From the NCBI GenBank assembly GCA_963836185.1, contig CAWIIQ010000001.1, positions 1,024,001 to 1,088,000 on the forward strand: a stretch of 64,000 nt of DNA, in the 5' to 3' direction. The notes beneath the pieces were generated by a model, which had not been told where the DNA came from, searched no databases, and was given only the letters and a program-made list of their open reading frames with translations. Positions 15,782 through 55,547 of the stretch are shown here, piece after piece. Source of the stretch: Candidatus Krumholzibacteriia bacterium. Lineage in GTDB: Bacteria; Krumholzibacteriota; Krumholzibacteriia; Krumholzibacteriales; Krumholzibacteriaceae. The translations under genes and the position numbers were made by a program. Each line of letters opens with the position of its first letter. The stretch's first letter is position 1.

Positions 15782-18700
15782 TTGAAAAGGGTCCTCGCAA
15801 TAACGGCGGCGGCAGCCGCGATATTCACCCTTGCCCTGGCCGGAGGCACACCGCCCCCGGCCCTCGCGCAGCAGACCATCACCTCTCCCGGGGATACATC
15901 TCTCTACCGGATCAGGTTCAACACATTCAGGTCGAGGATAGAGGACGGGCTTCAGGTCTGGCATATGGAAGGCGATGTCCGGATCGACCACCAGAACGCT
16001 ACGGTGACGAGCGAACGGGGGCGCCACTATCCCGAATTGAAGCATACGATTCTCGAGGGCGACGTGCGCGGGGTCGATGGATCGATGCGGATGTTCAGCG
16101 ATCTCGGCGAGTATTTCGGCGAGACGAATATCCTGATAATGATAGACAATGTGCGGCTGATCGACGAGGGGCTCGAGGTGACATGCCGAAGGGCCGAATA
16201 CGACAGGGAAGAGGGAACATTGATTCTCACCGGCAATGTGCGGCTCTCCGACAGCACGAGAGTCATGTATGCCGACTCGATCTTCTACGATCGTCAGATA
16301 GAGACAGCCGATGCGTGGCGGGACGTAGTCATAATAGATACGTCGGAGGATTTCTCAGTATCCGGAGCACACGGCCGGTTTTATCGCACCACGGGTGAAG
16401 CGATCATGTACGAGCACCCCGTCCTCGTCTTCGACGACCATGCCGAAGAGGAAGGACGCGTTACGAGCGAGTGGATGAGCTATGACATGGAGAAGGATGC
16501 CGGTGTCGCCGTCGGAGATGTCAACATGCTCAAGGGGCGCACCAGAGCGACGTGCGATTCGGCCTCGATCTTCAACGATGAAGGATTCATGGAACTGTTC
16601 GGTAACCCGGTCGCGAGAAGCGGCCCGTCGGGGATGACCGGTGAACGGGTGATGCTGTATTACAACGATCAGGGCGTGGAGAAGATCATTCTCCCCGAGA
16701 AGGGCCGCCTGACGGAAGCGCCGAAACCGGAATCCCCGTGGACCGGGGATTCGTGGATCGAGGGTGACTCGATCGTGATCCACATGTCGAACGATGCCGT
16801 GGATTCGGTCCAGATATTCGGTAACGCCAGGGCGATGTATTATCCATATGAGGGTGACGAGAACAAGGTCTCTAACAACTTCTCGCGTGGCGACACGATG
16901 TTCTTCAGGTTCGATGGTCCGGACCTGAGATATGTGAAGATATCCGGTGCCGCCTCGGGTACGTACAACTATCTCAACCTGGGACCTGGAGAGTCGATCG
17001 ATTCACTCGCGGCGCTCGTCGACAGCTCGATAGTGTTCAGGGAATTCGGACGGGACGCCGAGAAGATCATATATGAGGCGAGCGAGATCGAGTATTTCGC
17101 TACGACCGAGGATATCGTCATGCACGACGGCGCGAAGGTGAATTACCAGAACAAGTCCCTTACCGCCGGATATCATAAACTTCAGCTCAAGGCTGAATAT
17201 CCTCGACGCGCACGGTGAGCCGGCGCTCGATGAGAGCGGGCAGATGATGTACGGGTACGGGATGGGATACGATATGGAGACCGAGGGCGGTCTCGTGATG
17301 GACGGATCGACAAAATACGACGACGGGTATTATCTCGGCAAGAGGATCTTCAAGCAGGGCGAAGATGTGCTCAAGGTCTACAGTTCGACATACACAACAT
17401 GCGACTACAGGAAGTCACACTACTCGATGCGGGCCGGCAGGATGAAGGTCTATCTCGACGACAAGATCGTATCGGGCCCGATAACGCTCTACATAGGCGA
17501 GATCCCCTGCTTCTGGCTGCCGTACATGGTCAACTCGATACGACGGGGCCGCCAGTCGGGATTCCTCCGCCCGAATTTCGATATCGGGATCAACAGCCGC
17601 GACGGGCGTTTCATCAGGGGGCTGGGATATTACTGGGCGACGAACGACTATACGGATTTTACGCTTACGACCGATTTCAACGAGAACAGCAACTTTCGCA
17701 TACATCTTACCAACAGGTACAAGCTGAGGTACGTGCTTGGAGGGAACGTCAATCTCGATTTCTTCAGGGACTTCAACAAGAAATCGTATGAGTGGACCTT
17801 CAAGTCGAGTCACAACCAGACCTTCGGCAAGACCGCTTCCCTTCGAAGCAACCTGAGCTTTGTCAGCAGCGACGAGGCGCCTTCCTCGGTATACCGCGCC
17901 GACGACGTCGCGCGCGTCGTGGACAGGCGGATATATTCGACGATCAGCTTCAACAAGAGCTGGGGCGGAACGAGGCTCGGGCTCTCGGCGAGCCGGAACC
18001 AGACACTGAACGTGAGCTCGGACAATCCGAACGTAGTGTATATATCGAGTACGCTCCCGTCTCTTTCCTTCAATCTGCCGAGGATGTCGCTGTGGTTCGG
18101 CGAGAAACATTCGGGATCGGAGAGGGGGCTCTGGGAGGGGATCCTTCGCGAGGTGACCTGGGCGCCCAACCTGAAGGCGACACGTACGACGTCGCAGAGC
18201 GACGCGAGAAGGACTGATGATCTGACGGCGAGCTCCAGTGCTTCTATCAGCAAGCAGAACAGGTTCCTCGGGCTCAATATCGCCCCGGCGATGGGAGTAA
18301 ACTGGAGCTACGCCAATACCTTGAAAGACGAGATCAACCTGAAGTACGTCATACCTCCCCAGGCGGCGGAGATGACCGGTGATACAGTCTCCGTTCCGAT
18401 AACCATCGATCCCTCGAACAACTTTCTCAGGATAATCCTCAATGGAACGGAGAGCGATGACATCCTCATCACCGAGGGTGTATATAACACCGGCGCTTCT
18501 CTCGCGATCGAGCTGGAGAACTCGATCAATTCCTGGGCGGGCTGGGGGTCCGACCAGGTGACCGTCGCATGGCTCGACGATGGCGGAAGTACGGGAAGTT
18601 TCAGGTTCACCTCGAACGTGACAGGCACGGGATCATCGATCGAATTCGTCGATATCCCGAACGCGGTCTACGCGGCGATCGGGATCACGGCTGGGGTGCC

Positions 18701-19718
18701 GGCGTACGGATCGGACCAGTCCGGGCCGACCCCGAACGAGAGGTACAAGAACGAGGTGTCGATGCGTTTTTCTCTCAGCGTGGGAACGACGCTTTACGGA
18801 GTCTTTTATCCGAATATCGGCTCGCTGGTCGGGATCCGGCATACATTCAATCCGTCTGTCTCGTGGTCGTACGTCCCCGCGCTGACATCGAACCAGAGAG
18901 CGACCCAGGGATACAGCTGGTCATTGAGGAATGTCATAGACCTGAAATATCTCAAGGACGGCCAGGAGGCGAAGAAGAACAATGCCTTCACATGGAACAT
19001 GAGCGGAACGTACAGCCCCGAGCTGCAGGAAAGGCAGTTCTCCAATATCAGGTCGAGCATCAGGACGTCGGTGGGCAGGCTGGCCTCAATATCACTGAAC
19101 AACACGATCGATCCATACGAGTGGGAGTTACTCTCATCGAGCTTCTCGGCGAACATGAGTTTCGGCAGCGGTTTTACATGGCCGGGAAAGTGGGACCTGC
19201 CGGAGCGTGAAAAGATCAGGGTCGCGAAGGAGTTGGGCTCGGCGCCGAAGGAAAGCGATGAAGACGAGGAAGAAGACGAGATAGACAGCTACGACGGTTT
19301 CGTTTCCGATTTCGACGACGAGGATAGCTGGTCCGACGAACCAGGAGGAGGCGGACGCCCGGGAGCTTCGGGCAGAGGAACAAGCTGGTCGCTCAATATC
19401 GGCTACAGCTACTCCGGTTTCGGAGGCAACAGCATGTCGAGCCCGACGAGCAAGGTCGACATGCGCGGCAGCTTCAATTTCACGCCGAACTGGAAACTGA
19501 CTTTCAGCAATTACTTCGATATCCAGCGGCGAGAGTTTACGTCTCAGCAGTACAGCCTCATGCGTGATCTTCACTGCTGGCAGGCGGGATTCGTGCACCG
19601 CAGGTTCGGCGACGATTACTCCTATTACTTCCAGATACAGATCAAGGCGCACGGCGATCTCAAGTACGAGCAGGGAAAGAGGGGGCTCGGCGGGACCGTG
19701 CCCGGGTTCCTTGACTGA
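15782..19718 (+). CDS. lptD: Extended LPS-assembly protein LptD (tandem OstA/LptA-like repeats + beta-barrel); one +1 frameshift near 17168
   Basis: ORF 15782-17218 is a signal peptide plus repeated beta-jellyroll motifs. ORF 17244-19718 carries YTTCD, GRQSGFL.P, GYYWA and RDLHCW. Removing one G in GCCGGATATC joins them (KSLTADIINFSSRLNILDAHGEP). Confidence 0.8.
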
Positions 19719-19918: not shown

Positions 19919-20212
19919 ATGAACAAGACTGATCTCATCGAAAAGGTCGCGAAAAAGACCGGCATGACCAAGAAGGATTCGGCCATGGTTGTCGACGCGA
20001 TCTTCAGCACAGCTCCGAAGGAAGGCATTATTGCGACAGAGCTCGCGGCCAACAGAAGAGTGCAGATAACTGGATTCGGCACCTTCCAGACCCGTAAGCG
20101 CAAGAAACGCAAGGGCCGCAATCCCCAGACGGGCGAGACCATCACGATTCCGGCGACCAAGTTCCCCGCCTTTTCGGCTGGTAAGGCTCTCAAGGGCCGC
20201 GTAGCCAAGTAA
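19919..20212 (+). CDS. hup: HU-family DNA-binding protein
   Basis: [30 protein letters not shown]; strong AAGGAGGT RBS. Confidence 0.95.
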
Positions 20213-20230: not shown

Positions 20231-20266
20231 AGGGGCAAGGAGAATGTTTTCACTTTGCCCCTTTTT
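20231..20266 (+). terminator. Rho-independent terminator after hup
   Basis: AGGGGCAAGG...CTTTGCCCCT followed by a T tract. Confidence 0.7.
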
Positions 20267-20288
20267 CCATTCACGTTAGAATCCATAT

Positions 20289-21677
20289 ATGACAAAGACG
20301 TCAATGATATTGAAGCTGGCCCTGCCGGCTCTTCTCTTCTTCGCTCTCGCGGCGGGATGCACCCGGGATGAACCGGTGACGATCATATTCACCGGTGACA
20401 CGCAGGGGCGCCTAGTCCCCGCCGGGTGAGGCGAGTCCGCCTCAGGCGGCGTGGCCCGGCGGGCCGCGGCACTAAGCAGGATGAGAGAGGAGACACCCGG
20501 CCTGCTGCTCATCTCAGCCGGTGATTTCTACGCGGATAAAGGCATCCTCGAGCTTTACAGGAGCCGGTTCCTGGCGAACATGATGGTGCTGGCCAGGTAC
20601 GACGCCGTCGCCGTCGGCGAGAACGAACTGTCGTATGATTTGAAGGCGATACAGGAGGAGGCTCAGACCGGCCTTCCCGTGATCTGCGCTAATCTTTACT
20701 ATGAGAACGAAAGACTGTTCCCGCCATATGTCATCAAGGAGGCAGGCGGTTCGAAGATAGGGATATTCGCGCTGCTGGGGGAGGATTCGCCCGCGATAGA
20801 GGGGATCGAGCTCAGAGACGCGGCAGTCGAGGGTAGCGATGTCGCCGCGGAGCTGCGCGGTCTCGGATGCGACCTGGTGATTCTGCTGGCTCATTTCAGG
20901 CGCGAGGAACTCGAGTCGCTTCTCTACGGGATCGAAGGAATAGACCTCGTCATAAGAGGACATACCGAGCGTGGCGAGAAGGCTTCGAGTGACTGCGCCG
21001 ATACGATCGGAGGGTCATTTCAGGATTTCGGGGTCCCTGTGCTCTATTCGGGCGACAAGGGACGTGCTCTCGGCAGGGCCGTGATGACTCCTGCGGACGG
21101 TGGATGGGAACTGACAGATACTACGCTCGTCACACTTCCCAAGTCAGCTCCGAGCGACACGATGGTCGCCTCGATGCTAAACGGTTTCTTCGTCGAGGAG
21201 GGTGTGAGGCGCAAGAAGATGCAGGTCACTCAGTTCGTCGCGCGCGATCCCATTACTGGCAAGCTCAGGGAGAAGTATATCGGAATGGCCGTCTGCGCCC
21301 GCTGCCATGACCGTACAGCGGCTGATTTCATCGTCAGTCCTCACTTTCGTACATTCGCGCGGATGACCGAGTCGGGAAACGAAAGAAACGCCAAGTGTCT
21401 CCCCTGTCATACGACCGGATACGGCAGATTCAGCGGGTATGACCCCGAATCCGACGAGAAGGGCGGCATCGATCTCAGGGGAGTCCAGTGCGAGGCGTGT
21501 CACGGCCCAGGAACTAAACACACGCGGGACGGTAAATACAAGGAGGAGGCGAGGAAGAACTGCCGGGTCTGTCACGACGCGAAGAACAGCCCGCATTTCA
21601 ATTTCCAGACCTTCTGGGCGAAAGTGGGACATCGGGCCCTCGCGGACAGCGCCGGAGCGTCAGAGGCGCACAGATAG
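20289..21677 (+). CDS. Putative selenoprotein: lipoprotein with UshA-like metallophosphoesterase-fold domain + tetraheme cytochrome c554-like domain (Sec at UGA 20427-20429)
   Basis: Upstream of and in frame with ORF 20451 are a signal peptide, lipobox LAAG-C and TIIFTGDTQGRLVPAG-UGA-GESASGGVARRA. The C-terminus has CARCH, CLPCH, CEACH and CRVCH. A hairpin follows the UGA. Confidence 0.85.
20450..20468 (+). promoter_or_regulatory. Candidate bacterial SECIS hairpin
   Basis: CGTGGCCC-GGC-GGGCCGCG stem-loop with a G-leading apical loop 28 nt after the UGA. Confidence 0.55.
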
Positions 21678-21693
21678 ATCTTCGGATGATACT

Positions 21694-22458
21694 ATGAGAA
21701 CTCTATTGATATTTCTCTGCGTGACAGCGGTGCTGCTTTCGGCAGGTACTGTCTCGGCGGATGTCGACTTTCTCGTGCCCGGGGTCTCCCTGCATTCTAT
21801 CGATTTTACCGCGGGAACGGCGGTGTCTTACCTGATCATATCGGAGGCTCACGGCATAAGGGACAGCTCGCTTGTCACGCTGAAGGTAACGGGCAATGAT
21901 TCAGGGGCCGCCGTCCTGGAGATAAGTTCCACGACCTGGCCCCCGGTAGACGCGGAGAGGATAACCGTACGCCTGACCTTGTGCGCAAACGCCGGCGAGA
22001 TGAAGACCCCCGAGGAGTTTTACTCCTGCATAAGCGATATCCTCGTCAGGGACGGCGCGGAAGATTTCAGGGAGCCGTCACTGGAGGAACTCGAGGATTT
22101 CGATATCGGCAGGCTCTTTCTCAAGAGAAACGAGGGATTCCAGCGGCAGGAGCTCGAACCTGAGAAGGTGGAGGTCCCTGCCGGGACCTTCCCATGCGAG
22201 GTCTTCGAGTATTTCAGGAGCGACCGGCGTGACGTGGCGATGGGGGGGATCACGGCTGAACGTTTCGAGAAGGAGAGGAGCATCCTGAGGATATCCTCCG
22301 AGGTCCCCTTCTGGGGACTCGTGAGAAGCCGTGTCGAACGGAGCTCGAAAACGCTCTATCCGGGCGGCCGCAGCCAGCGAGAGACCATGCCCAAGGTCAC
22401 TGTCACCGAATCGGTCCTTCTGGACTACTCCACTCCAGGCAGGGTAGAGGGAGACTGA
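21694..22458 (+). CDS. Secreted hypothetical protein (VPAG.F motif, DUF3108-like)
   Basis: ATG at 21694 starts a signal peptide (MRTLLIFLCV...SA-D); EKVEVPAGTFPC motif. Confidence 0.6.
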   Translation: MRTLLIFLCVTAVLLSAGTVSADVDFLVPGVSLHSIDFTAGTAVSYLIISEAHGIRDSSLVTLKVTGNDSGAAVLEISSTTWPPVDAERITVRLTLCANAGEMKTPEEFYSCISDILVRDGAEDFREPSLEELEDFDIGRLFLKRNEGFQRQELEPEKVEVPAGTFPCEVFEYFRSDRRDVAMGGITAERFEKERSILRISSEVPFWGLVRSRVERSSKTLYPGGRSQRETMPKVTVTESVLLDYSTPGRVEGD

Positions 22459-22598: not shown

Positions 22599-24950
22599 GT
22601 GAAGAGGATCGCCGCAACTGTCATCTGTATTCTCACCATCATTAACATATTTCCTGTCATGTCATCAGCGGATACCTTCGGGACTGAGTCCGGGCTCCGC
22701 AAAGCAGTCGTGATAATCAGCGGCGGCGACGCCGGTTCCTACGCGAAGGCTATGGATCTGGCCGGGAAGGCCGGAGCGAGGGGCGTGGTCGGCCTGCCGC
22801 CGACGATGTTGTTTGGAAGGTTCCCCGCCGGCGCAGGGGCGAGTGATTTCGAAGGGCTCGACGTCCGGTTCTTCACTGAAGCGGCGGATATCGATCCGAT
22901 GGAGGTGGACCTCATCACGCTGAAGGTCGCCAGAGGGCTTCTCGACCAGGAGAAGATCCTCAGAATGTCGAAGCCGATACCGGCCGAGCCGTTCAAAGAC
23001 TTCGTATTCGATTTTCCTGAAGAGCTCGCAAGGCGAAATCCCCCGAAGGCAGGCGGTCCGAAAGGAAGCGCTCCGTCGGAGATAATGGAGAGGGGCATCA
23101 GGCAGAACTCCGAGTTTCTTCTCGGCAAGGTGCTCGTCAACGTTATCCTTCCAGAAAGTTCCGGGACCGGTCATAGCGAGGACTGGACGGATGACGAGAT
23201 AGGCAATGCGCTGCGCGATATCGCTATCGGACTCTCACAGTACGAGAACGCGACTAACTGGATGCCGGAGGGGACGCAGCCGGTGTTTTCCGTGAACTGT
23301 CCCGTGCTGCACCAGAGAGTGCCCGTATCGATAGAGCCTACCGAGGGTAACTGGGACTCCGATCCGTTCTGGATCTCCGAGGTGATGGACTACTTGGGGG
23401 AGAGCTACAATATCGATATGCCTGCCGATGCGTGGACGGCGGAGAAGGCGCATATCTTCAACAACGCGATGAGGGAGGGGATCCTCGATGACGGCAGCCC
23501 CGCCCACGACTGGGTATTTACCGCTTTTGTCGCCGATGCCAGTGTCAACGGGTGCTGGCTGGGCGATTCTTATGTTGCCTATACGGTCTTTCTCGGAGGT
23601 CCGTATATTGTAGTTCCCTACCCTGCCTGCAGGTTCGGCGACGGTATCGGTTTCGCCCACGTTTTCATCCACGAGATGAGCCATGTCTTCTGGGCGCTCG
23701 ATGAGTATGCCAGCGCGGAAGCGTCATGCAACGCCAGGTCGGGCTATCTCGACTACATCAACGCCAACTCGTATTTCCGGGATTGCGGGGCGCGCCGGGC
23801 CTGCATCATGAACAACGCCCCGTTGAACGAACCGCTCGCGATATGCCCGTGGACGATGGGGCAGGTCGGGCTAGCCGATGACTACGATATTTTCCAGGAT
23901 GAAAATGTGCCTAACTCGATCCCGGATATCTACGAGGTCTTTCCTGAAATGGAAATCAGCATCCCTGTGACAGATACGATCTTCACGAGCGATCTGGCCG
24001 TCGGGATAAGGATCGAGACGACGCCGGTGCCGAACCAGAATTCCGCGTTCGGGGGCGAGGGTATCGACTATGCGCCAGTACTGACAAAGCTGGAGATGAG
24101 CATAGGCGATGACGGGATCTTCGTGCCGGTCGAGGGGATGAGGACCGGCAGCCCGAACTTCAGCGGTGGGATGCTTCTGCAGGAGGGACTCGATCCCGGC
24201 GAGAACCTTATCAAGTTCCGTGTGGAGAACGAGGTGGGGCTGAGTGCGACGGACAGTGTCAGGGTCTATTTTGTCGGTATCCGCTACTACGCGACCTCGT
24301 CTGCCGCCAGTGAGGAGAGTATCGAAGTACGATGGCAGACGGCATGGGAGCTTTTCGGAGCGGATTTCGAAATATACAGGGAAGATCTTACGGCGAGGAC
24401 TCCAGATGCGCTTTACGCCACGGTCCCTGGAGGATCTTCTTCCGGGGAGATCGATGAAAGGCGCCGCTTTGTTTATATTGACGACGATATCATGCCGGGG
24501 CATACGTACAGATACAGGATCATCGGGACGATAGACGAGGGTGTTCCGCGGCCGCTGACCTACGCGGCGCGCGAGCTGGTCGAGACGGCGGTCGTGCCGC
24601 TCGCCGGAAACTTCGTCTCGCCTGCTATCCCCAATCCTACAGATGACAGGGGGAGCACCTTCAGCATCGCTGTGCCGAGAAGCTACTTCGATCCTTCGGG
24701 CACGACCTCGAGGGATATCATGCGCGCGCCGATGGCCGAGACGAAGACCACCGTTCAGGTCAACGTATACGACGTCACGGGCAGAAAGGTCCGGGAGGTC
24801 TATAACCTGGGCGTCTTCGGCGGGCAGATCCTGACGATGACCTGGGACGGCCTCGACAACAACGGCGGTCAGGTGGCGGCGGGCGTATACTTCATGAAGG
24901 TCACGGCCGGCTCCAATGAGCAGGTCCAGAAGGTCGTCATCATCCGCTGA
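22599..24950 (+). CDS. Secreted zinc metalloprotease with C-terminal FlgD-Ig/T9SS-type sorting domain
   Basis: Signal peptide; HEMSHVFWALDEY zinc motif; C-terminal PNP...VYDVTGRKVR...WDG....G..VAAGVYF...KVVIIR. Confidence 0.8.
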   Translation: MKRIAATVICILTIINIFPVMSSADTFGTESGLRKAVVIISGGDAGSYAKAMDLAGKAGARGVVGLPPTMLFGRFPAGAGASDFEGLDVRFFTEAADIDPMEVDLITLKVARGLLDQEKILRMSKPIPAEPFKDFVFDFPEELARRNPPKAGGPKGSAPSEIMERGIRQNSEFLLGKVLVNVILPESSGTGHSEDWTDDEIGNALRDIAIGLSQYENATNWMPEGTQPVFSVNCPVLHQRVPVSIEPTEGNWDSDPFWISEVMDYLGESYNIDMPADAWTAEKAHIFNNAMREGILDDGSPAHDWVFTAFVADASVNGCWLGDSYVAYTVFLGGPYIVVPYPACRFGDGIGFAHVFIHEMSHVFWALDEYASAEASCNARSGYLDYINANSYFRDCGARRACIMNNAPLNEPLAICPWTMGQVGLADDYDIFQDENVPNSIPDIYEVFPEMEISIPVTDTIFTSDLAVGIRIETTPVPNQNSAFGGEGIDYAPVLTKLEMSIGDDGIFVPVEGMRTGSPNFSGGMLLQEGLDPGENLIKFRVENEVGLSATDSVRVYFVGIRYYATSSAASEESIEVRWQTAWELFGADFEIYREDLTARTPDALYATVPGGSSSGEIDERRRFVYIDDDIMPGHTYRYRIIGTIDEGVPRPLTYAARELVETAVVPLAGNFVSPAIPNPTDDRGSTFSIAVPRSYFDPSGTTSRDIMRAPMAETKTTVQVNVYDVTGRKVREVYNLGVFGGQILTMTWDGLDNNGGQVAAGVYFMKVTAGSNEQVQKVVIIR

Positions 24951-38070: not shown

Positions 38071-39123
38071 ATGTCAAAGAAGTACCGTTTAACGGCCATG
38101 GCTTCCTGTTCGGGCTGAGCTTCCAAGCTCAGCCCGACGGAGTTGTGGCCAGTTCTTCATAAGCTCCCTCCCCAGAACCATCCCGACCTGATCGTCGGAA
38201 CGAGCCAGGCGGATGACAGCGGGGTAGTGCGCGTCAGCGACGATAAGGCGATCATACTCACGGTAGATTTCTTCCCGGCTATAGTCGACGATCCGTACTT
38301 TTTCGGGCAGGTCGCCGCGGCGAACGCGATGAGCGATGTCTACGCGATGGGAGGCGAGGTGCTCTCAGCGCTGAACATCATCGGATTCCCCGAGGGTATG
38401 CTAGAGATAGAGGCACTTGAGCTTCTCATGAAGGGTGGCGCCGACAAGGTAAACGAAGCGGGCGGGGTAATAGTCGGCGGCCACACGTTGAAAGATACCG
38501 AGCTGAAGTACGGCCTGTCAGTGGTGGGGACGATCCATCCCGATGATATCGTGCTGACAGCAGGTGCCAGGCCAGGTGACGCTCTTGTCCTTACCAAGCC
38601 GCTCGGCACAGGGATCTACTCAACGGCTCTGAAAAAAGGTGCCCTGGGACAAGAGCAGGAGGCCCTCTTTATCGGCCAGATGACAGCCCTCAACGGACCG
38701 GCGGCAAAGGCGATGGTAGCGGCGAAAGCGCACGCCTGTACCGATGTCACCGGGTTCGGTCTGATCGGCCACGCCCTCGAGATGGCTGTCGGCTCCGACG
38801 TCACCCTGGCGATAGATATGGGTGCCGTTCCACTTCTGCCCGAATCCCTTCATCTAGCCTCGCACGGCGTCCTCACGGGGGGTGGTGCGTCGAATATCGA
38901 GTTCGCGAGCATATCTGTCGAGTTCGAGGGCAAGGTGTCGAGGGAGGAGAAGATGGTCCTTCACGATCCGCAGACTTCCGGCGGCCTGCTCATCGCCATA
39001 CAGGCGGATAAGGCTGATGACCTGGCCGGTGTCGTGAGGGATTCAGGCGCCGGTTACGCCGCCGTCATCGGAGAGGTTCTTCCCCAGGCTCCCGGCAGAA
39101 AGCCGATGATCGTCAGGGCCTGA
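38071..39123 (+). CDS. selD: Selenide, water dikinase (selenophosphate synthetase), selenocysteine-containing (UGA 38116-38118)
   Basis: MSKKYRLTAMASCSG-UGA-ASKL is in frame with ORF 38143 (DDSG, TVDFF, AANAMSDVYAMGG, GGHT, TDVTGFGL.GH, DPQTSGGLL). Confidence 0.95.
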
Positions 39124-42358: not shown

Positions 42359-44802
42359 TTGGACGTAAAGAGATTTCTCGGCAAGGTCACTGTCGACGAC
42401 CTTTACGACGGCCAGATAGTCCACAGTCACAAGATTCCACTGCGCAGCGCCCGCTTCGGCGAGCTCGGTGAAGCACTGCCGCCTGGCCTCGCTTCGATCC
42501 TTGCCGGTTCGGGTATCGAGAGCCTCTACACACACCAGGTCGAGGCGGTCGAGTCTCTGCGCGGCGGGATCGACACGGTCATAGTCACATCGACGGCGAG
42601 CGGGAAGACGCTCTGCTATAACATTCCCGTTCTCGAGGCCCTCATAGAGGACCCCGGGAGCAGGGCGCTCTACCTCTATCCGACGAAGGCCCTCGCTCAG
42701 GACCAGCTGAGGGTGCTCAAGAGGTACAAGGATGGCGGCTCGATCAGCATTCGAGGCAGGGACGTACGATGGGGATACTCCGGGGCCGCTGCGAAGAAAG
42801 CTGCGCGACGGCGCCAGCATACTTCTGACCAATCCCGATATGCTTCACTCGGGGATCCTGCCTAATCACGCGAAGTGGGCCCCCTTCCTGACGAAGCTGC
42901 GCTACGTCGTCGTCGACGAGATACACAGTTATCGAGGCGTCTTCGGCTCGCATGTATCGAACGTGATGAGGCGGCTCTCACGGATATGCGACCATTACGG
43001 GTCTAAGCCGGTATTCGCGGCTAGCTCGGCGACGATCGCCAATCCGGGCGAGCACGCGGGGCGGCTGCTCGGCCGCGAGATGAAGGTCGTCACGAAGGAC
43101 GGTTCGCCGAGGGGGCGCAAGACCTTCCTCATGTGGAACCCGCCTAACCTGGACCCCGCGGGGATGGAGCGAAGGAGCTCGAACGCCGAAGCGGCCGAGC
43201 TCGTCACCCGGCTCATCCTCGACGGTGTCCAGACGATCGCCTTCGTCAGGGCGCGCGTGGTGAGCGAGGTGATAACGAGATATGTCCGGGACATGCTCTC
43301 AAAGCACCGGGCCTCGATGGCCGATTCGGTCCATCCATACAGGGGCGGGCTACCTCCCCGAGGAGCGCAGGGAGATAGAGCGCCGGTTATTCGAGGGCGA
43401 ACTCAAGGCGGTCATCAGCACCAACGCCCTCGAGCTCGGCATCGACGTCGGAGCGTTGCATGCCTCGGTGATCGTCGGTTATCCGGGCAGCATAGCCTCG
43501 ACGTGGCAGCAGGCGGGAAGGGCCGGGCGCGGCATGGAAGACTCACTGATCATATTCATCCCGCAGAATACACCGCTCGACCAGTATCTTGCCCGCAATC
43601 CCGACTACTTCTTCGGGCGCTCGCCAGAGAACGCGATAATCGATCCGGAAAACCCGCACGTCCTTCTCGGCCAGATGCGCTCCGCCGCCTTCGAGCTTCC
43701 GCTGGCCGCGAAGGAGGTAGAGGGGATGGGCGAGTACGCTCCGGCGATCGCGCAGCTCCTCGAGGAGGAGAGGGATCTCAACTTCGTCAAGGGGAGCTGG
43801 TTCTGGCGGGGGCACGGCTATCCAAGCGCCGACGTCAACCTGCGCAATATCTCGCCGAACATCTACACGATAATCGACGAGTCTGACGGCAACAGGGTGA
43901 TCGGCACGATCGACGAGGCGAGCGCATTCCAGCAGGTCCATACACAGGCGATATATCTGCACGAGGCGGAGACGTATTTCGTCCGTGACCTCGATATAGA
44001 GAAGAAGATAGCTTTCATAGAAAAGACGAATGTCGACTACTACACGCAGTCTATCACCGAGACCCAGGTCAAGGTCGACCGCGAGGAGAAGAACGGGATG
44101 TGGAGGATCAGCCCGATCGCCTTCGGCGACGTCTCGGTGACCGATCTGACGTTCATGTTCAGAAAGATAAAGTTCGGCAGCCGCGACTCGATCGGCTACG
44201 GCAAATGCGATCTGCCGCCGCAGATCCTCGAGACGGCCGGTATGTGGATAGAGCCCCCGGGCGACGCGCTCGCCGCGGTGCGCGAATGGGGAAGGGTCCC
44301 TTCCGAGGGGCTGCTCGGCCTGTCCAATATACTCAGGGAGGTCGTGCCTCTGTTCGTGATGTCCGATCCGCTCGATATCGGAACGACGGTAAACTCGCGT
44401 TCGACCGGCGGCCCGGCTCTCTACATATATGACAAGTACCCTGGCGGCCTCGGTTTCGCGCGCAAGACTTACGACATAGTCGAGGAGGTCATGCAGGCCT
44501 CGCTCGAGTTGATACAGACATGCGGATGCAGGAAGGGATGCCCCTCATGCGTCGGTTCCCCCATACCGCCCTTCACACAGCTCGACCCCGATACGGGCGG
44601 GCGCGGGATGATCCCCGACAAGGAGGCGGCCCTTGTGATCCTGCACCTTCTTCTTGAGCTCGAGGCCTACGAACCTGCTCCTCTCGAGGATTACGGAGGA
44701 GGGCCGGTGGAGAGGCCCGAGGGCAAGCCGCTCCCTGTCGAGCTGGAGAACAAGTTGCGCAGGACTCTGCTGCGCAACGGGGAGCGCGGTCGCAGGTCAT
44801 GA
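42359..44802 (+). CDS. DEAH-box helicase with DUF1998 (YprA/MrfA/Hrq1 family); two +1 frameshifts (~42747, ~43348)
   Basis: Motifs across three ORFs: TASGKT, YPTKALAQDQ, DEIHSYRG.FGS, SATIANP, TNALELGIDVG, QQAGRAGR, C.C..GCP.C. Confidence 0.88.
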
Positions 44803-52122: not shown

Positions 52123-54027
52123 CTATCGGAGGAGGACCAGCTTCGTCATGCCGACCATTTTCCCGCTGTCGAAGACTGCGGCGGCATAGATGCCCGATGC
52201 GACAGGCCGGCCACTGTCGGCCCTGCCGTTCCATACGACCGAACCGGTCCCGTCGGCTGACGACATCACGGTCCTCGTATGGATGCGTTTTCCGGCTATG
52301 GAGAAAACGACTACTTCTATAAGGCTGCCGGGGCTGGCCGTAAAGGAGATCGTCGTAGCGGGATTGAACGGGTTGGGCGAGCATGAGACCTCTGCCGGCG
52401 GCAGAGGCGCCGCGTCGCTTTCCTGACGGGAAGCAGCCGCATCCGCCGTCTCTTCCTGCAGGGTCAGGTCGCTGGAAACGGGAGGAGTGGAACCGTAGGG
52501 TGGAGGGAAGGGAAGTTCCTTTATAGCATCGACATTGATGTGCCCCATCGGCGCCGAGCAGTGGTCGACGATCTCGAGGTAGAACTCATGGCCCATATAG
52601 GGTTCGAGATTCCAGATCCGCTTATCCATCAGTTCGATGCCGCGCCCCGTTTCGCTGTATATCGTTTCTCCCGAGACGGCGTCGATCATCGCTATGTAGC
52701 ATGAATCGGGGTAAGCTCCTCCGCCTACGAGAAGACTCATCGAGCGTCCCGTCACGGTGAATACGGTCGAACGGATAGAGCCCCTCGGACCGTCTCCCTG
52801 GCGGGATCCAGGTCTGTATCCGAAGATCGGCCCGTCGAATCTCTCGGCCGTTCCGATCCACCAGTTTCCCTCGAATCCGACCTTTGTGGTGTCGTCGCCG
52901 CGGAAAGCGTACGCGTCTCCGAATACGGGCTGGTGATCGAACGCGTCTCCATCGAGGATCGTCCAGTCTCCGAGTGGAGCTTCAAGTTTGACAACGGCAT
53001 GGTCGCCGCTCCATGTCAGGGTGTCGAATCTGATCGAGTAGACATTGTCATTCGTGTAGTCGAGGTACGAGGTATGCCTCGATATTATTTCCGCTCCCGT
53101 AGGTGTTCGTGTGATCTCCGCCGCGTGGCCGAAATCGATGACCGACCTGTAGATGACGTTCCACCCGCTTGTCAGGGAATCGGAAAACATGTGGGAGACG
53201 CCTCCGACGCCTTCTTCGGTAAAGAAGAGGTGGTATTTACCCTCGCGCTTGAGGACAAAAGTACTCTCCAGCAGGTGCCAGTTGTCGTGAACGTACATCG
53301 GTCCCGTGTCGTTCCACGAGAATCTGCCGTCTCCGCTCGTGAGAGCCACGGCGCCGTAATCATACTTTGTCCTGGTAGTCTGCGTGAGATAGCAGCCGGT
53401 CTCATCCTCGAAGAAGTTAGGGTCCCGGAAATGGCAGTACTCGTCAACGGCCCAGTTGCACCAGGAAGAATCGCACGCAAACGGTTCGATAAGCTCTTCC
53501 TGCGCCTTGGTCCATTGAAAAAGGTCGCCGTTGGAGTAGGCTATCCCTGTCTGCTGGGCCGACGCGGAGTTTACACCTGTATAGAACATGAGGTAGTAGC
53601 CGTCCGTTCCCTCGAGCGGGATCACACACGGCGCCCATATATCACGTGAGTCCCATGCGCCCGGTTCTCCTCTCGAGAGCACAGGTTCATGGAACGTCCA
53701 GCGGACCAGGTCGGTAGAGGTGGCATGCCCGAAGGTTCGTTCGTTGGCGACGATATAGAAGATATGATATACGCCGTCGGCCATCACTATTGTGTGATCC
53801 TTGACGTCCTGGTCGGGGTTGTACAATACGGGGCCCTCGAAATCAAAGAAGACCATCGCTTCCGGATCGCCGGGGACAAAGGTGTCTCCCATCGAGCGGT
53901 CAGACCGGTGCTTCTTGTCGAAGTCGACGGCGTTTTCGGTCGCTCCGGCGGGGACAGCCGAAAGAAGGACCGATGCCGCGACAAGGGTGAGGGTCGTCTG
54001 GAATCGTGATCTGATAATGTGTGTCAT
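52123..54027 (-). CDS. Secreted GH32/GH43-like five-bladed beta-propeller glycosidase with FlgD/T9SS-type C-terminal domain
   Basis: KDHT, YHIFY, WAP, FRDP, LES motifs; C-terminal PNPFNP...WNG...G..VASGIY. Start at 54027 chosen from the signal peptide. Confidence 0.72.
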   Translation of the reverse strand: MTHIIRSRFQTTLTLVAASVLLSAVPAGATENAVDFDKKHRSDRSMGDTFVPGDPEAMVFFDFEGPVLYNPDQDVKDHTIVMADGVYHIFYIVANERTFGHATSTDLVRWTFHEPVLSRGEPGAWDSRDIWAPCVIPLEGTDGYYLMFYTGVNSASAQQTGIAYSNGDLFQWTKAQEELIEPFACDSSWCNWAVDEYCHFRDPNFFEDETGCYLTQTTRTKYDYGAVALTSGDGRFSWNDTGPMYVHDNWHLLESTFVLKREGKYHLFFTEEGVGGVSHMFSDSLTSGWNVIYRSVIDFGHAAEITRTPTGAEIISRHTSYLDYTNDNVYSIRFDTLTWSGDHAVVKLEAPLGDWTILDGDAFDHQPVFGDAYAFRGDDTTKVGFEGNWWIGTAERFDGPIFGYRPGSRQGDGPRGSIRSTVFTVTGRSMSLLVGGGAYPDSCYIAMIDAVSGETIYSETGRGIELMDKRIWNLEPYMGHEFYLEIVDHCSAPMGHINVDAIKELPFPPPYGSTPPVSSDLTLQEETADAAASRQESDAAPLPPAEVSCSPNPFNPATTISFTASPGSLIEVVVFSIAGKRIHTRTVMSSADGTGSVVWNGRADSGRPVASGIYAAAVFDSGKMVGMTKLVLLR

Positions 54028-54031
54028 AATA

Positions 54032-54072
54032 TAAAAAGTGACCCGGGTCAGGGCATGGCAGACCCGGGTCTG
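54032..54072 (-). terminator. Terminator built from two self-palindromic GACCCGGGTC arms
   Basis: Minus strand GACCCGGGTC-N11-GACCCGGGTC-ACTTTTT. Confidence 0.55.
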
Positions 54073-54154
54073 TGGGACTATCATGTCCCGGATTATTTTC
54101 CTATAGTCAGATCCGTTCAATCCTGAGCTCCCTCTCCGGAGGCGCAGGCAGGTA

Positions 54155-55387
54155 TCACCTCAGCAGGATCATCTTGCGGGTGAGGACCTCTTTGCCTATC
54201 TGCAGCCTGCAGTAGTACACGCCTGAAGGTATCGACCTTCCAGAGGAGAGAGCCGGATTCCATACATAGGTGTGGTCACCGGCGGATCTATTTCCGAGAT
54301 CGTGCCTGGCGACCGTCTTGCCCGACACGTCGTAGAACACCATCGTCACCCGGGTGCCTGATTCGGCCGATCCGACCGTGAACGGGATCGTGGTCGCCGG
54401 GTTGAAGGGATTCGGGTAGTTCTGGCCCATGGAACTCGGCACTCCGGGCACCCCGGAAGCCAGCATCGGCCCGACGATCGCCGGGTCATCGGTACCCAGC
54501 TCGACGAGCCAGTAGTACCTGTCGACCAGCGGATCATCGCATTCATCGAACCAGCTGAAACTCGTTATGCCGTAGACCGGTTCAGTGTTTCTCCTCATTG
54601 CGGAAGCAAGGTCGGGGCTGTCGCCGCGGTAGATATCAAATCCGGTAGTCTCGCCGCAGCAGTACGCGACCCAGGAGAGGACCACGCCGCCATTGACCCT
54701 TTCGCATACTGCCGTCGTGACCTGAACGGCAGTAACAGGGATCAACTCGAGTGATACCTGTTCGGAAGTGCCGGAGGCGGTCATGATGCCGCTGACTTCC
54801 GCGCTCCTGTATCCGGGGGCGCTGGCCTGAACGGTAAATTCGCCTTCGGGCAGGTTCGAGAAATCGAAATTCTTGTCGTTGAAACATGAGCAGGACATGA
54901 CGTGGCCGTCGGCCGTGCTGATCAGGTTTACGACGGCCCCGGCCGGAACACCGGGCTGATCCGACTCGAGGATGCCCTCGATGACCGCGTCGGGCCTGTC
55001 GAGCCAGTACTCATATGTGGAATCGTTGAATGAGAAATACCAGTACCCGCTGTCGGGCAGGACCGCGACTATCGACGGGGGGCTCCAGTCGTATGCGGCT
55101 GTTCCCCAGCCCTCTGTGAACGACCAGCCCCAGTGCATGGGCAGGTACGATCCATCCGCGGTGAATTTGAAGTATATCGTGTCGGGGTCGCCCGGCTCAT
55201 TAATCAGCTTGAGCTTTCGCCAGACGTTATCGCCGATCGGATCCATGTTGTTTTCTGCGTCATCCGGCTCACATGTGATTCCGGCGAAATTGCCGACCAA
55301 CTGTATCGAACTGAATTCCTGGGCTTGCGCCCCGGCTGCAGATAGAAAAAGGCTGCCGACGAGCAGCATGCCTGTAAGAAGATTCAT
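54155..55387 (-). CDS. Secreted protein: SusE/F- or CBM-like domain + carboxypeptidase-regulatory-like domain + FlgD/T9SS-type C-terminal domain
   Basis: Signal peptide; LVGNF...M....W....YFKF..DG...WG; F.NLP.G.F.V.ASAPGY; QNYPNPFNP...SGVYY.RL....RKMILLR. Confidence 0.7.
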   Translation of the reverse strand: MNLLTGMLLVGSLFLSAAGAQAQEFSSIQLVGNFAGITCEPDDAENNMDPIGDNVWRKLKLINEPGDPDTIYFKFTADGSYLPMHWGWSFTEGWGTAAYDWSPPSIVAVLPDSGYWYFSFNDSTYEYWLDRPDAVIEGILESDQPGVPAGAVVNLISTADGHVMSCSCFNDKNFDFSNLPEGEFTVQASAPGYRSAEVSGIMTASGTSEQVSLELIPVTAVQVTTAVCERVNGGVVLSWVAYCCGETTGFDIYRGDSPDLASAMRRNTEPVYGITSFSWFDECDDPLVDRYYWLVELGTDDPAIVGPMLASGVPGVPSSMGQNYPNPFNPATTIPFTVGSAESGTRVTMVFYDVSGKTVARHDLGNRSAGDHTYVWNPALSSGRSIPSGVYYCRLQIGKEVLTRKMILLR

Positions 55388-55460
55388 TCTCAATTCCACA
55401 CTTCCCTCAAGATGTAAAGCGCGCATTCCCGGACGAGAAGGAATGCGTCGATGTAGGTAA

Positions 55461-55489
55461 ATTATAGCGCAGTATGCCGTTTTTGTCAA
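55461..55489 (-). promoter_or_regulatory. Consensus sigma70 promoter
   Basis: Minus strand TTGACA, 17 bp, TATAAT (perfect consensus). Confidence 0.8.
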
Positions 55490-55547
55490 TATAGACAATC
55501 AGGGACAGACTGCCATCGGGCATTTCCATCCATCCGGACCTCTCTGA

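Follow-up and report, generated by a model that had tools for sequence, protein, structure and literature searches.

The gene at positions 20289–21677 of the window, a stretch of 64,000 nucleotides from a Candidatus Krumholzibacteriia bacterium, is a hidden selenoprotein gene: a derived variant that descends from the NF041198 family (UshA_like_PCGU) and fails the formal score and motif of that family, but likely works like it. What distinguishes it is the clade to which it belongs, in which the usual cysteine next to the redox residue has been lost and a distant one gained. As a tentative overall explanation, held at somewhat less than even confidence, we propose that the protein is a thiol-disulfide oxidoreductase that pairs Sec47 with Cys236 and is wired to c554-like hemes.

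The gene lies on the forward strand, and the open reading frame list opens it at a GTG (20451) downstream of the UGA. As the earlier note had claimed, the frame extends upstream through a single UGA (20427–20429) to the ATG at 20289; translated with TGA as U, it yields 462 aa with one recoded codon, U47, in the context LVPAG-U-GESASGGVARRA. The A-G-U motif (20421–20429) thereby carries Ala45 where the family has Cys. The extension supplies the export signal that had also been claimed, a lipoprotein signal peptide (20289–20360) with the lipobox LAAG-C24, and Cys occupies this column in 33/36 clade loci. Further motifs of the protein are TIIFTGDTQG, GENE, GHTE and four CxxCH. A putative sigma70-like promoter, recognized by consensus match only, reads TTGCCC-16-TAGAAT (20255–20282, forward strand). 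The distance of 6 nt from the predicted −10 box to the ATG suggests a leaderless mRNA; this spacing is kept in 7/7 genus loci and in only 11/35 clade loci. A long-loop hairpin with a T run after the stop of the upstream HU gene (20231–20265), spotted by eye and missing from the list of the scan, overlaps the −35 box.

The in-frame UGA almost certainly encodes selenocysteine, as had been proposed. TGA occupies this codon in all 42 orthologous loci of the order (36 + 6), a sample that comprises one named contig and 41 of the 43 order-level genomes; the two genomes left out (G139 and G147) hold no full copy, and their assemblies are 82% and 73% complete. Rows were dropped where they duplicated genome loci (L001, L003–L006), represented the gene itself (P0002) or stemmed from a non-homologous pattern match (one in L087). 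Outside the order, the codon is TGA in 26/35 loci and TGC or TGT (Cys) in the other 9/35; these 35 loci were selected by us from the top matches that 108 genomes outside the order, but within the class, had given, and seven of them represent a separate paralogue. All 120 listed protein homologues begin past residue 47. Moreover, a SECIS-like hairpin (20445–20473, core GCCC-GGC-GGGC at 20454–20464) follows the UGA and is kept in 41/42 xGU and 24/26 CGU loci vs. 1/9 CGC loci, with the core GCCC-GGN-GGGC at a distance of 27 nt from the UGA in 35/36 and 6/6 of the two xGU sets. Its first Arg codon is CGG in 59/62 UGA loci, compared with 6081/38801 Arg codons in long open reading frames of the genome. 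Sec-to-Cys reversion occurs in 0/42 clade loci and twice in the sister group, where the hairpin is gone in one revertant (L052) and a different loop is folded in the other (L072).

The host genome encodes tRNA-Sec (selC) and a selA above cut-off, and the selD noted earlier in the window is confirmed (38071–39123, forward strand); it has an in-frame UGA of its own at 38116 (C-S-G-U), downstream of which the open reading frame list starts it at 38143. Frameshifted pieces represent selB in this assembly (G000:C1:47922–49803), while the gene is intact and over cut-off in 5/5 congeners, by way of which the set selA, selB, selC and selD that is expected of a bacterial selenoprotein producer is complete. 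Since selB and lptD are broken here and whole in congeners, we read both breaks as assembly errors. A DEAD-box/MrfA-type helicase gene in the window (42732–44802) is likewise present as two overlapping open reading frames, and together with the selB and lptD breaks it makes indel errors likely in this assembly. Termination at the UGA, or an error of sequencing there, is a reading to which these frameshifts and the lack of read coverage at the site lend some weight, but it is effectively refuted by the TGA in 42/42 separate assemblies of the order, the hairpin tied to the UGA, the Cys in homologues and the intact Sec machinery of the congeners.

The best NCBIfam match of the protein is NF041198, whose 519-column model spans the N-terminal domain and the heme region. 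The score of 199.5 bits is below the cut-off of 275, as are those of five other clade members (188–235 bits), and annotation therefore truncates the gene at the UGA. The C-x-U (PCGU) motif is replaced by P-A-G-U. However, the second motif position holds Sec or Cys, a SECIS-like element is present and the architecture, a UshA-like N-terminal domain followed by a tetraheme domain, is that of the family; descent from PCGU members is indicated by the tree and by synteny, and the P-C-G-U orthologues L037, L049 and L054 pass the cut-off. The clade thus shares with NF041198 the two-domain architecture, the Sec position and the degenerate ligands, and differs from it by x-G-U in place of C-G-U and by an insertion with an invariant Cys236. 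UshA-like family 2 (NF049981), described by the motif CxxU (PMC13188914), scores 41.9 bits where 140 are required, and CxxU is absent from the protein. The earlier note had stressed the fusion of a UshA-like domain to a tetraheme cytochrome and the altered phosphoesterase ligands. Both are present, but neither is distinctive: NF041198 covers both domains, and the C-x-C/U relatives across the class, like the distant representatives, have four CxxCH as well and phosphoesterase motifs that are just as degenerate, so that these are features of the family and not of this gene.

The UshA-like family is catalogued as a CxU selenoprotein (COG0737 UshA-like; PMC2398784, PMC13188914), and our literature search returned catalogue entries only and no functional study. 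A variant with a residue other than Cys at position −2 was not found in this search, although the supplements of PMC2398784, PMC13188914 and PMC13326102 could list some; the main text of PMC13326102 does not mention UshA. Within the class, the gene has a housekeeping-like distribution, with matches at E ≤ 1e-39 in 142/151 genomes, and the family comprises 3924 clusters of 50% identity at E ≤ 1e-10, with heme-only and nucleotidase matches counted in. Close homologues that bear a name are labeled Candidatus Krumholzibacteriota. Two heme-less paralogues are encoded in the same genome, both on the reverse strand (G000:C1:967460–968509 and G000:C6:5252–6223); one has P-C-G-U and represents a second hidden selenoprotein, and the other has S-C-G-C and retains the heme domain in families f6 and f9. 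Their neighbors gave no functional clue. Other family members (P0157, P0193, P0199, P0204 and P0216; P0125, P0150 and P0171) show a fusion to a DUF1573 Ig-like domain or two CxC UshA-like modules, between which P0125 and P0150 carry a DsbA-like domain. Second in-frame stops in other families proved to be terminal codons only.

The replacement of the −2 Cys by Ala, pointed out earlier for this protein, holds as a loss of Cys for the whole order: across the 42 loci the residue is Ala (28), Phe (5), Ser (4), Gly (2), Tyr (2) or Val (1), and never Cys. The same proteins share a clade-specific insertion after GH225 (20982–21017) that contains Cys236 (codon 20994–20996). This Cys is kept in 36/36 and 6/6 loci and in 119/119 homologues (mean pairwise identity of the homologues 53%), sets that overlap, while the adjacent positions 228–235 are variable. 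It is lacking in 35/35 C-x-U/C loci and in 105 C-x-C representatives. A tree from a quick search with midpoint root unites the 36 xGU rows in a single clade (SH-aLRT 100, stem 0.74), which is nested within the PCGU rows. This clade likely corresponds to the Krumholzibacteriales, the order which we take families f1–f3 to constitute. As the loss of Cys45 and the gain of Cys236 fall on one branch, their correlation counts as a single evolutionary event. Among the distant representatives, 105/149 have Cys at both motif positions and 40 more begin after the motif; the single-Cys relatives P0164 (V-G-C) and P0180 (P-P-C) have an equivalent loop that is free of Cys, and both motif Cys are absent in P0187 and P0266. 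A Sec without a partner, as the earlier note has it, is improbable, since each clade member that lacks Cys45 carries the invariant Cys236. Cys236 is somewhat more likely than not the redox partner of Sec47 in place of Cys45, with Cys133 (36/36 clade loci), Cys194 (30/36) and Cys449 (17/36, though not in the protein described here) as possible alternative partners for Cys236.

The gene is located behind lptD and a HU gene, an arrangement that it shares with most PCGU genomes. The lptD gene (15782–19718, forward strand), split in two open reading frames here and a single one in congeners, serves as a synteny marker, and its product is also a possible client, with its Cys pair kept in 25/25 and 24/25 sequences. 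The HU gene (19919–20212, forward strand) marks the upstream side and is the only part of the locus covered by RNA contigs. Directly downstream, a secreted protein of 254 aa (21694–22458, forward strand) has no match in Pfam or NCBIfam; its Atlas neighbors are unnamed clusters, with a recognition value under the reliable range. Its Cys168 is near-invariant (42/44). The syntenic gene adjoins that of the selenoprotein in the clade and in families f6 and f9, but not in the examined loci of f4, f5, f7 and f8, and its presence in f6 and f9 indicates that it predates the Cys shift. Judged by this synteny, its product is a candidate companion of the selenoprotein. Three secreted proteins of the window (22599–24950, 52123–54120 and 54155–55498) have FlgD-Ig/T9SS-like C-terminal domains, and the first of them is syntenic with the selenoprotein locus.

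The near-core distribution, the fixed place by lptD with its Cys pair and the DsbA-like domains of relatives favor a role in envelope thiol-disulfide chemistry. DsbA-like thioredoxin domains were found in 5/25 scanned relatives, which had been chosen mostly for extra length, and only 2/5 of these fusions have a CxxC in or beside the domain. We propose that the protein is exported, predicted to be membrane-anchored, and would act in the periplasm as a thiol-disulfide oxidoreductase, either oxidase or reductase. Sec47 would attack or form a disulfide bond in a client of the envelope. Resolution of the mixed Se–S intermediate would fall to Cys236, as the stand-in for the lost Cys45, and the four hemes would reset the Sec47/Cys236 pair one electron at a time. 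An earlier example of c-type hemes that are wired to Sec and Cys is MccSep (PMC13510729). A redox rather than a hydrolytic function is very probable, and the prospects that envelope protein thiols are the substrate may be put at nearly even.

Against this proposal, a crude test of Cys parity among open reading frames with signal peptides revealed no even bias (0.44 vs. 0.50). Thioredoxin_4 had no match in the genome, which is 92.5% complete, a result that does not imply absence. Among the 101 genomes searched, DsbB was found in none and VKOR in two, while MauE, a reported DsbB substitute (bioRxiv 10.64898/2026.03.05.709764), is present in 100, and its CGC motif is intact in the order. Disulfide formation consequently has another candidate and a role of the selenoprotein as substitute for DsbB is not needed; the strong form of the idea, replacement of DsbB/VKOR by the selenoprotein, was rejected. 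The MauE proteins of the order (G000:C3:231445–231855; L135:5296–5895) contain some 12 additional aa ahead of the CGC and score 50–67 bits, compared with 70–108 bits in other families, and a rhodanese-domain gene is located directly upstream of MauE.

The C-terminal domain (21261–21632) contains the four CxxCH at 21294, 21396, 21489 and 21561 and, as had been claimed, resembles cytochrome c554: it matches PF13435 with 42 bits (cut-off 20.8), and its model superimposes on 1bvb with Z 10.8 and rmsd 2.9 over 128 aligned residues. The tetraheme fold with three conserved extra His (His352, His411 and His448) is common to both, whereas the domain of the selenoprotein is shorter and joined to a selenocysteine domain. 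Several members of family f2 (L057, L059–L061) have His448 replaced, by Cys in 3/36 clade loci, and the Cys449 mentioned above directly follows this position, so that heme ligation may have changed in these proteins. In domains of the c554 type one heme, heme 2, is five-coordinate. The presence of three extra His for four hemes fits the main rival explanation, in which the protein is a small-molecule reductase like MccSep: Sec47 would attack an S/Se compound such as polysulfide or selenite, and Cys236 (or Cys45, in the relatives) would ligate or sit at a putatively open heme 2, which would donate the electrons. MccSep indeed uses Sec together with a heme-ligating Cys (PMC13510729), and as a periplasmic system of Sec, Cys and c-type hemes MccSep/ExtKL may be a chemical analogue; SoxB, furthermore, shares the fold of the N-terminal domain (Z 29.6). 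However, MccSep belongs to a different family with five hemes (NF040886), to which the protein, with its four CxxCH, has no match at E ≤ 0.1, and in which Sec is part of the cytochrome itself (PMC13510729). In addition, nearly all genomes of the class have the gene, and it lies beside envelope genes, not respiratory ones. We consider polysulfide or selenite reduction rather improbable.

The N-terminal part (20361–21215) adopts the 5′-nucleotidase fold with a degenerate dimetal site and a linker helix, as judged by comparison of a model with 1ush and by column counts. Residues 25–310 of the AlphaFold2 model (mean pLDDT 89.3, pTM 0.75) superimpose on UshA (1ush) with Z 31.0 and rmsd 2.2 over 275 aligned residues. 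Fold and linker helix are shared with UshA, CD73 and SoxB (Z about 30–32, rmsd 2.2–3.8, approximately 275 residues), but the selenoprotein lacks their catalytic residues and C-terminal substrate domain. Active 5′-nucleotidases and metallophosphoesterases possess the ligands DxH, GDxxD/Q, GNHE, H and GHxH/Q. Here DTQ, GENE and GHTE are found instead, and positions 39, 112 and 227 vary freely; lost are the His of the first motif, both residues of the Asn-His pair and the final ligand, and D37, D79, E111, H202 and H225 are kept. A residual phosphoesterase or thiohydrolase that uses Sec and hemes as a redox switch is, despite the close fold match to 5′-nucleotidases and SoxB, very unlikely given these freely varying ligands and the missing substrate-binding domain.

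The five retained ligands bear on the earlier proposal that Sec may lie next to a metal site. In its favor, they are kept in the clade, H202 in 36/36 loci and 119/119 homologues and H225 in 34/36 and 118/119, compared with 27/35 and 24/35 of the C-x-U/C relatives. Against it, both His are absent in the family f7 orthologues, which have nevertheless kept C-G-U, and all former metal ligands vary among distant representatives. The better conservation within the clade and the existence of single-Cys relatives also speak for a lone Sec47 that works without a resolving Cys by a remodeled single-metal site of these five residues, with Cys236 in a structural role or as a metal ligand. We regard this as unlikely, because the f7 orthologues argue against a family-wide metal and because an invariant Cys that arose on the very branch where Cys45 was lost is most simply a replacement. 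Across the family the motif pair is kept while the metal ligands drift, and from this we infer that this chalcogen pair is the active center and that the hemes reset it; in the order, Cys236 likely fills the role of Cys45.

This near-core gene of the order scores below the cut-off of the curated HMM and is truncated in 120/120 listed database proteins, so that its Sec and signal peptide have been missed. In most lists of selenoproteins the UshA-like family figures as a nucleotidase-like curiosity. The exchange of the neighboring Cys for a distal one in this clade is an argument that the family depends on a Sec/Cys pair and has a redox function, and it points to the residues that can be tested. 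A broader interpretation appears possible, if somewhat doubtful: the family may represent an undescribed class of flavin-free, heme-coupled envelope thiol-disulfide oxidoreductases on a retired nucleotidase fold, in which, within this order, the resolving Cys would have shifted by 190 residues to a newly acquired loop and the enzyme would have come to depend strictly on selenium. The strict dependence would follow from the lack of Sec-to-Cys reversion in the 42 loci, while the 119 further homologues all begin past the Sec site. If true, the CxU and U...C enzymes would be natural counterparts for mechanistic work on a very large uncharacterized family.
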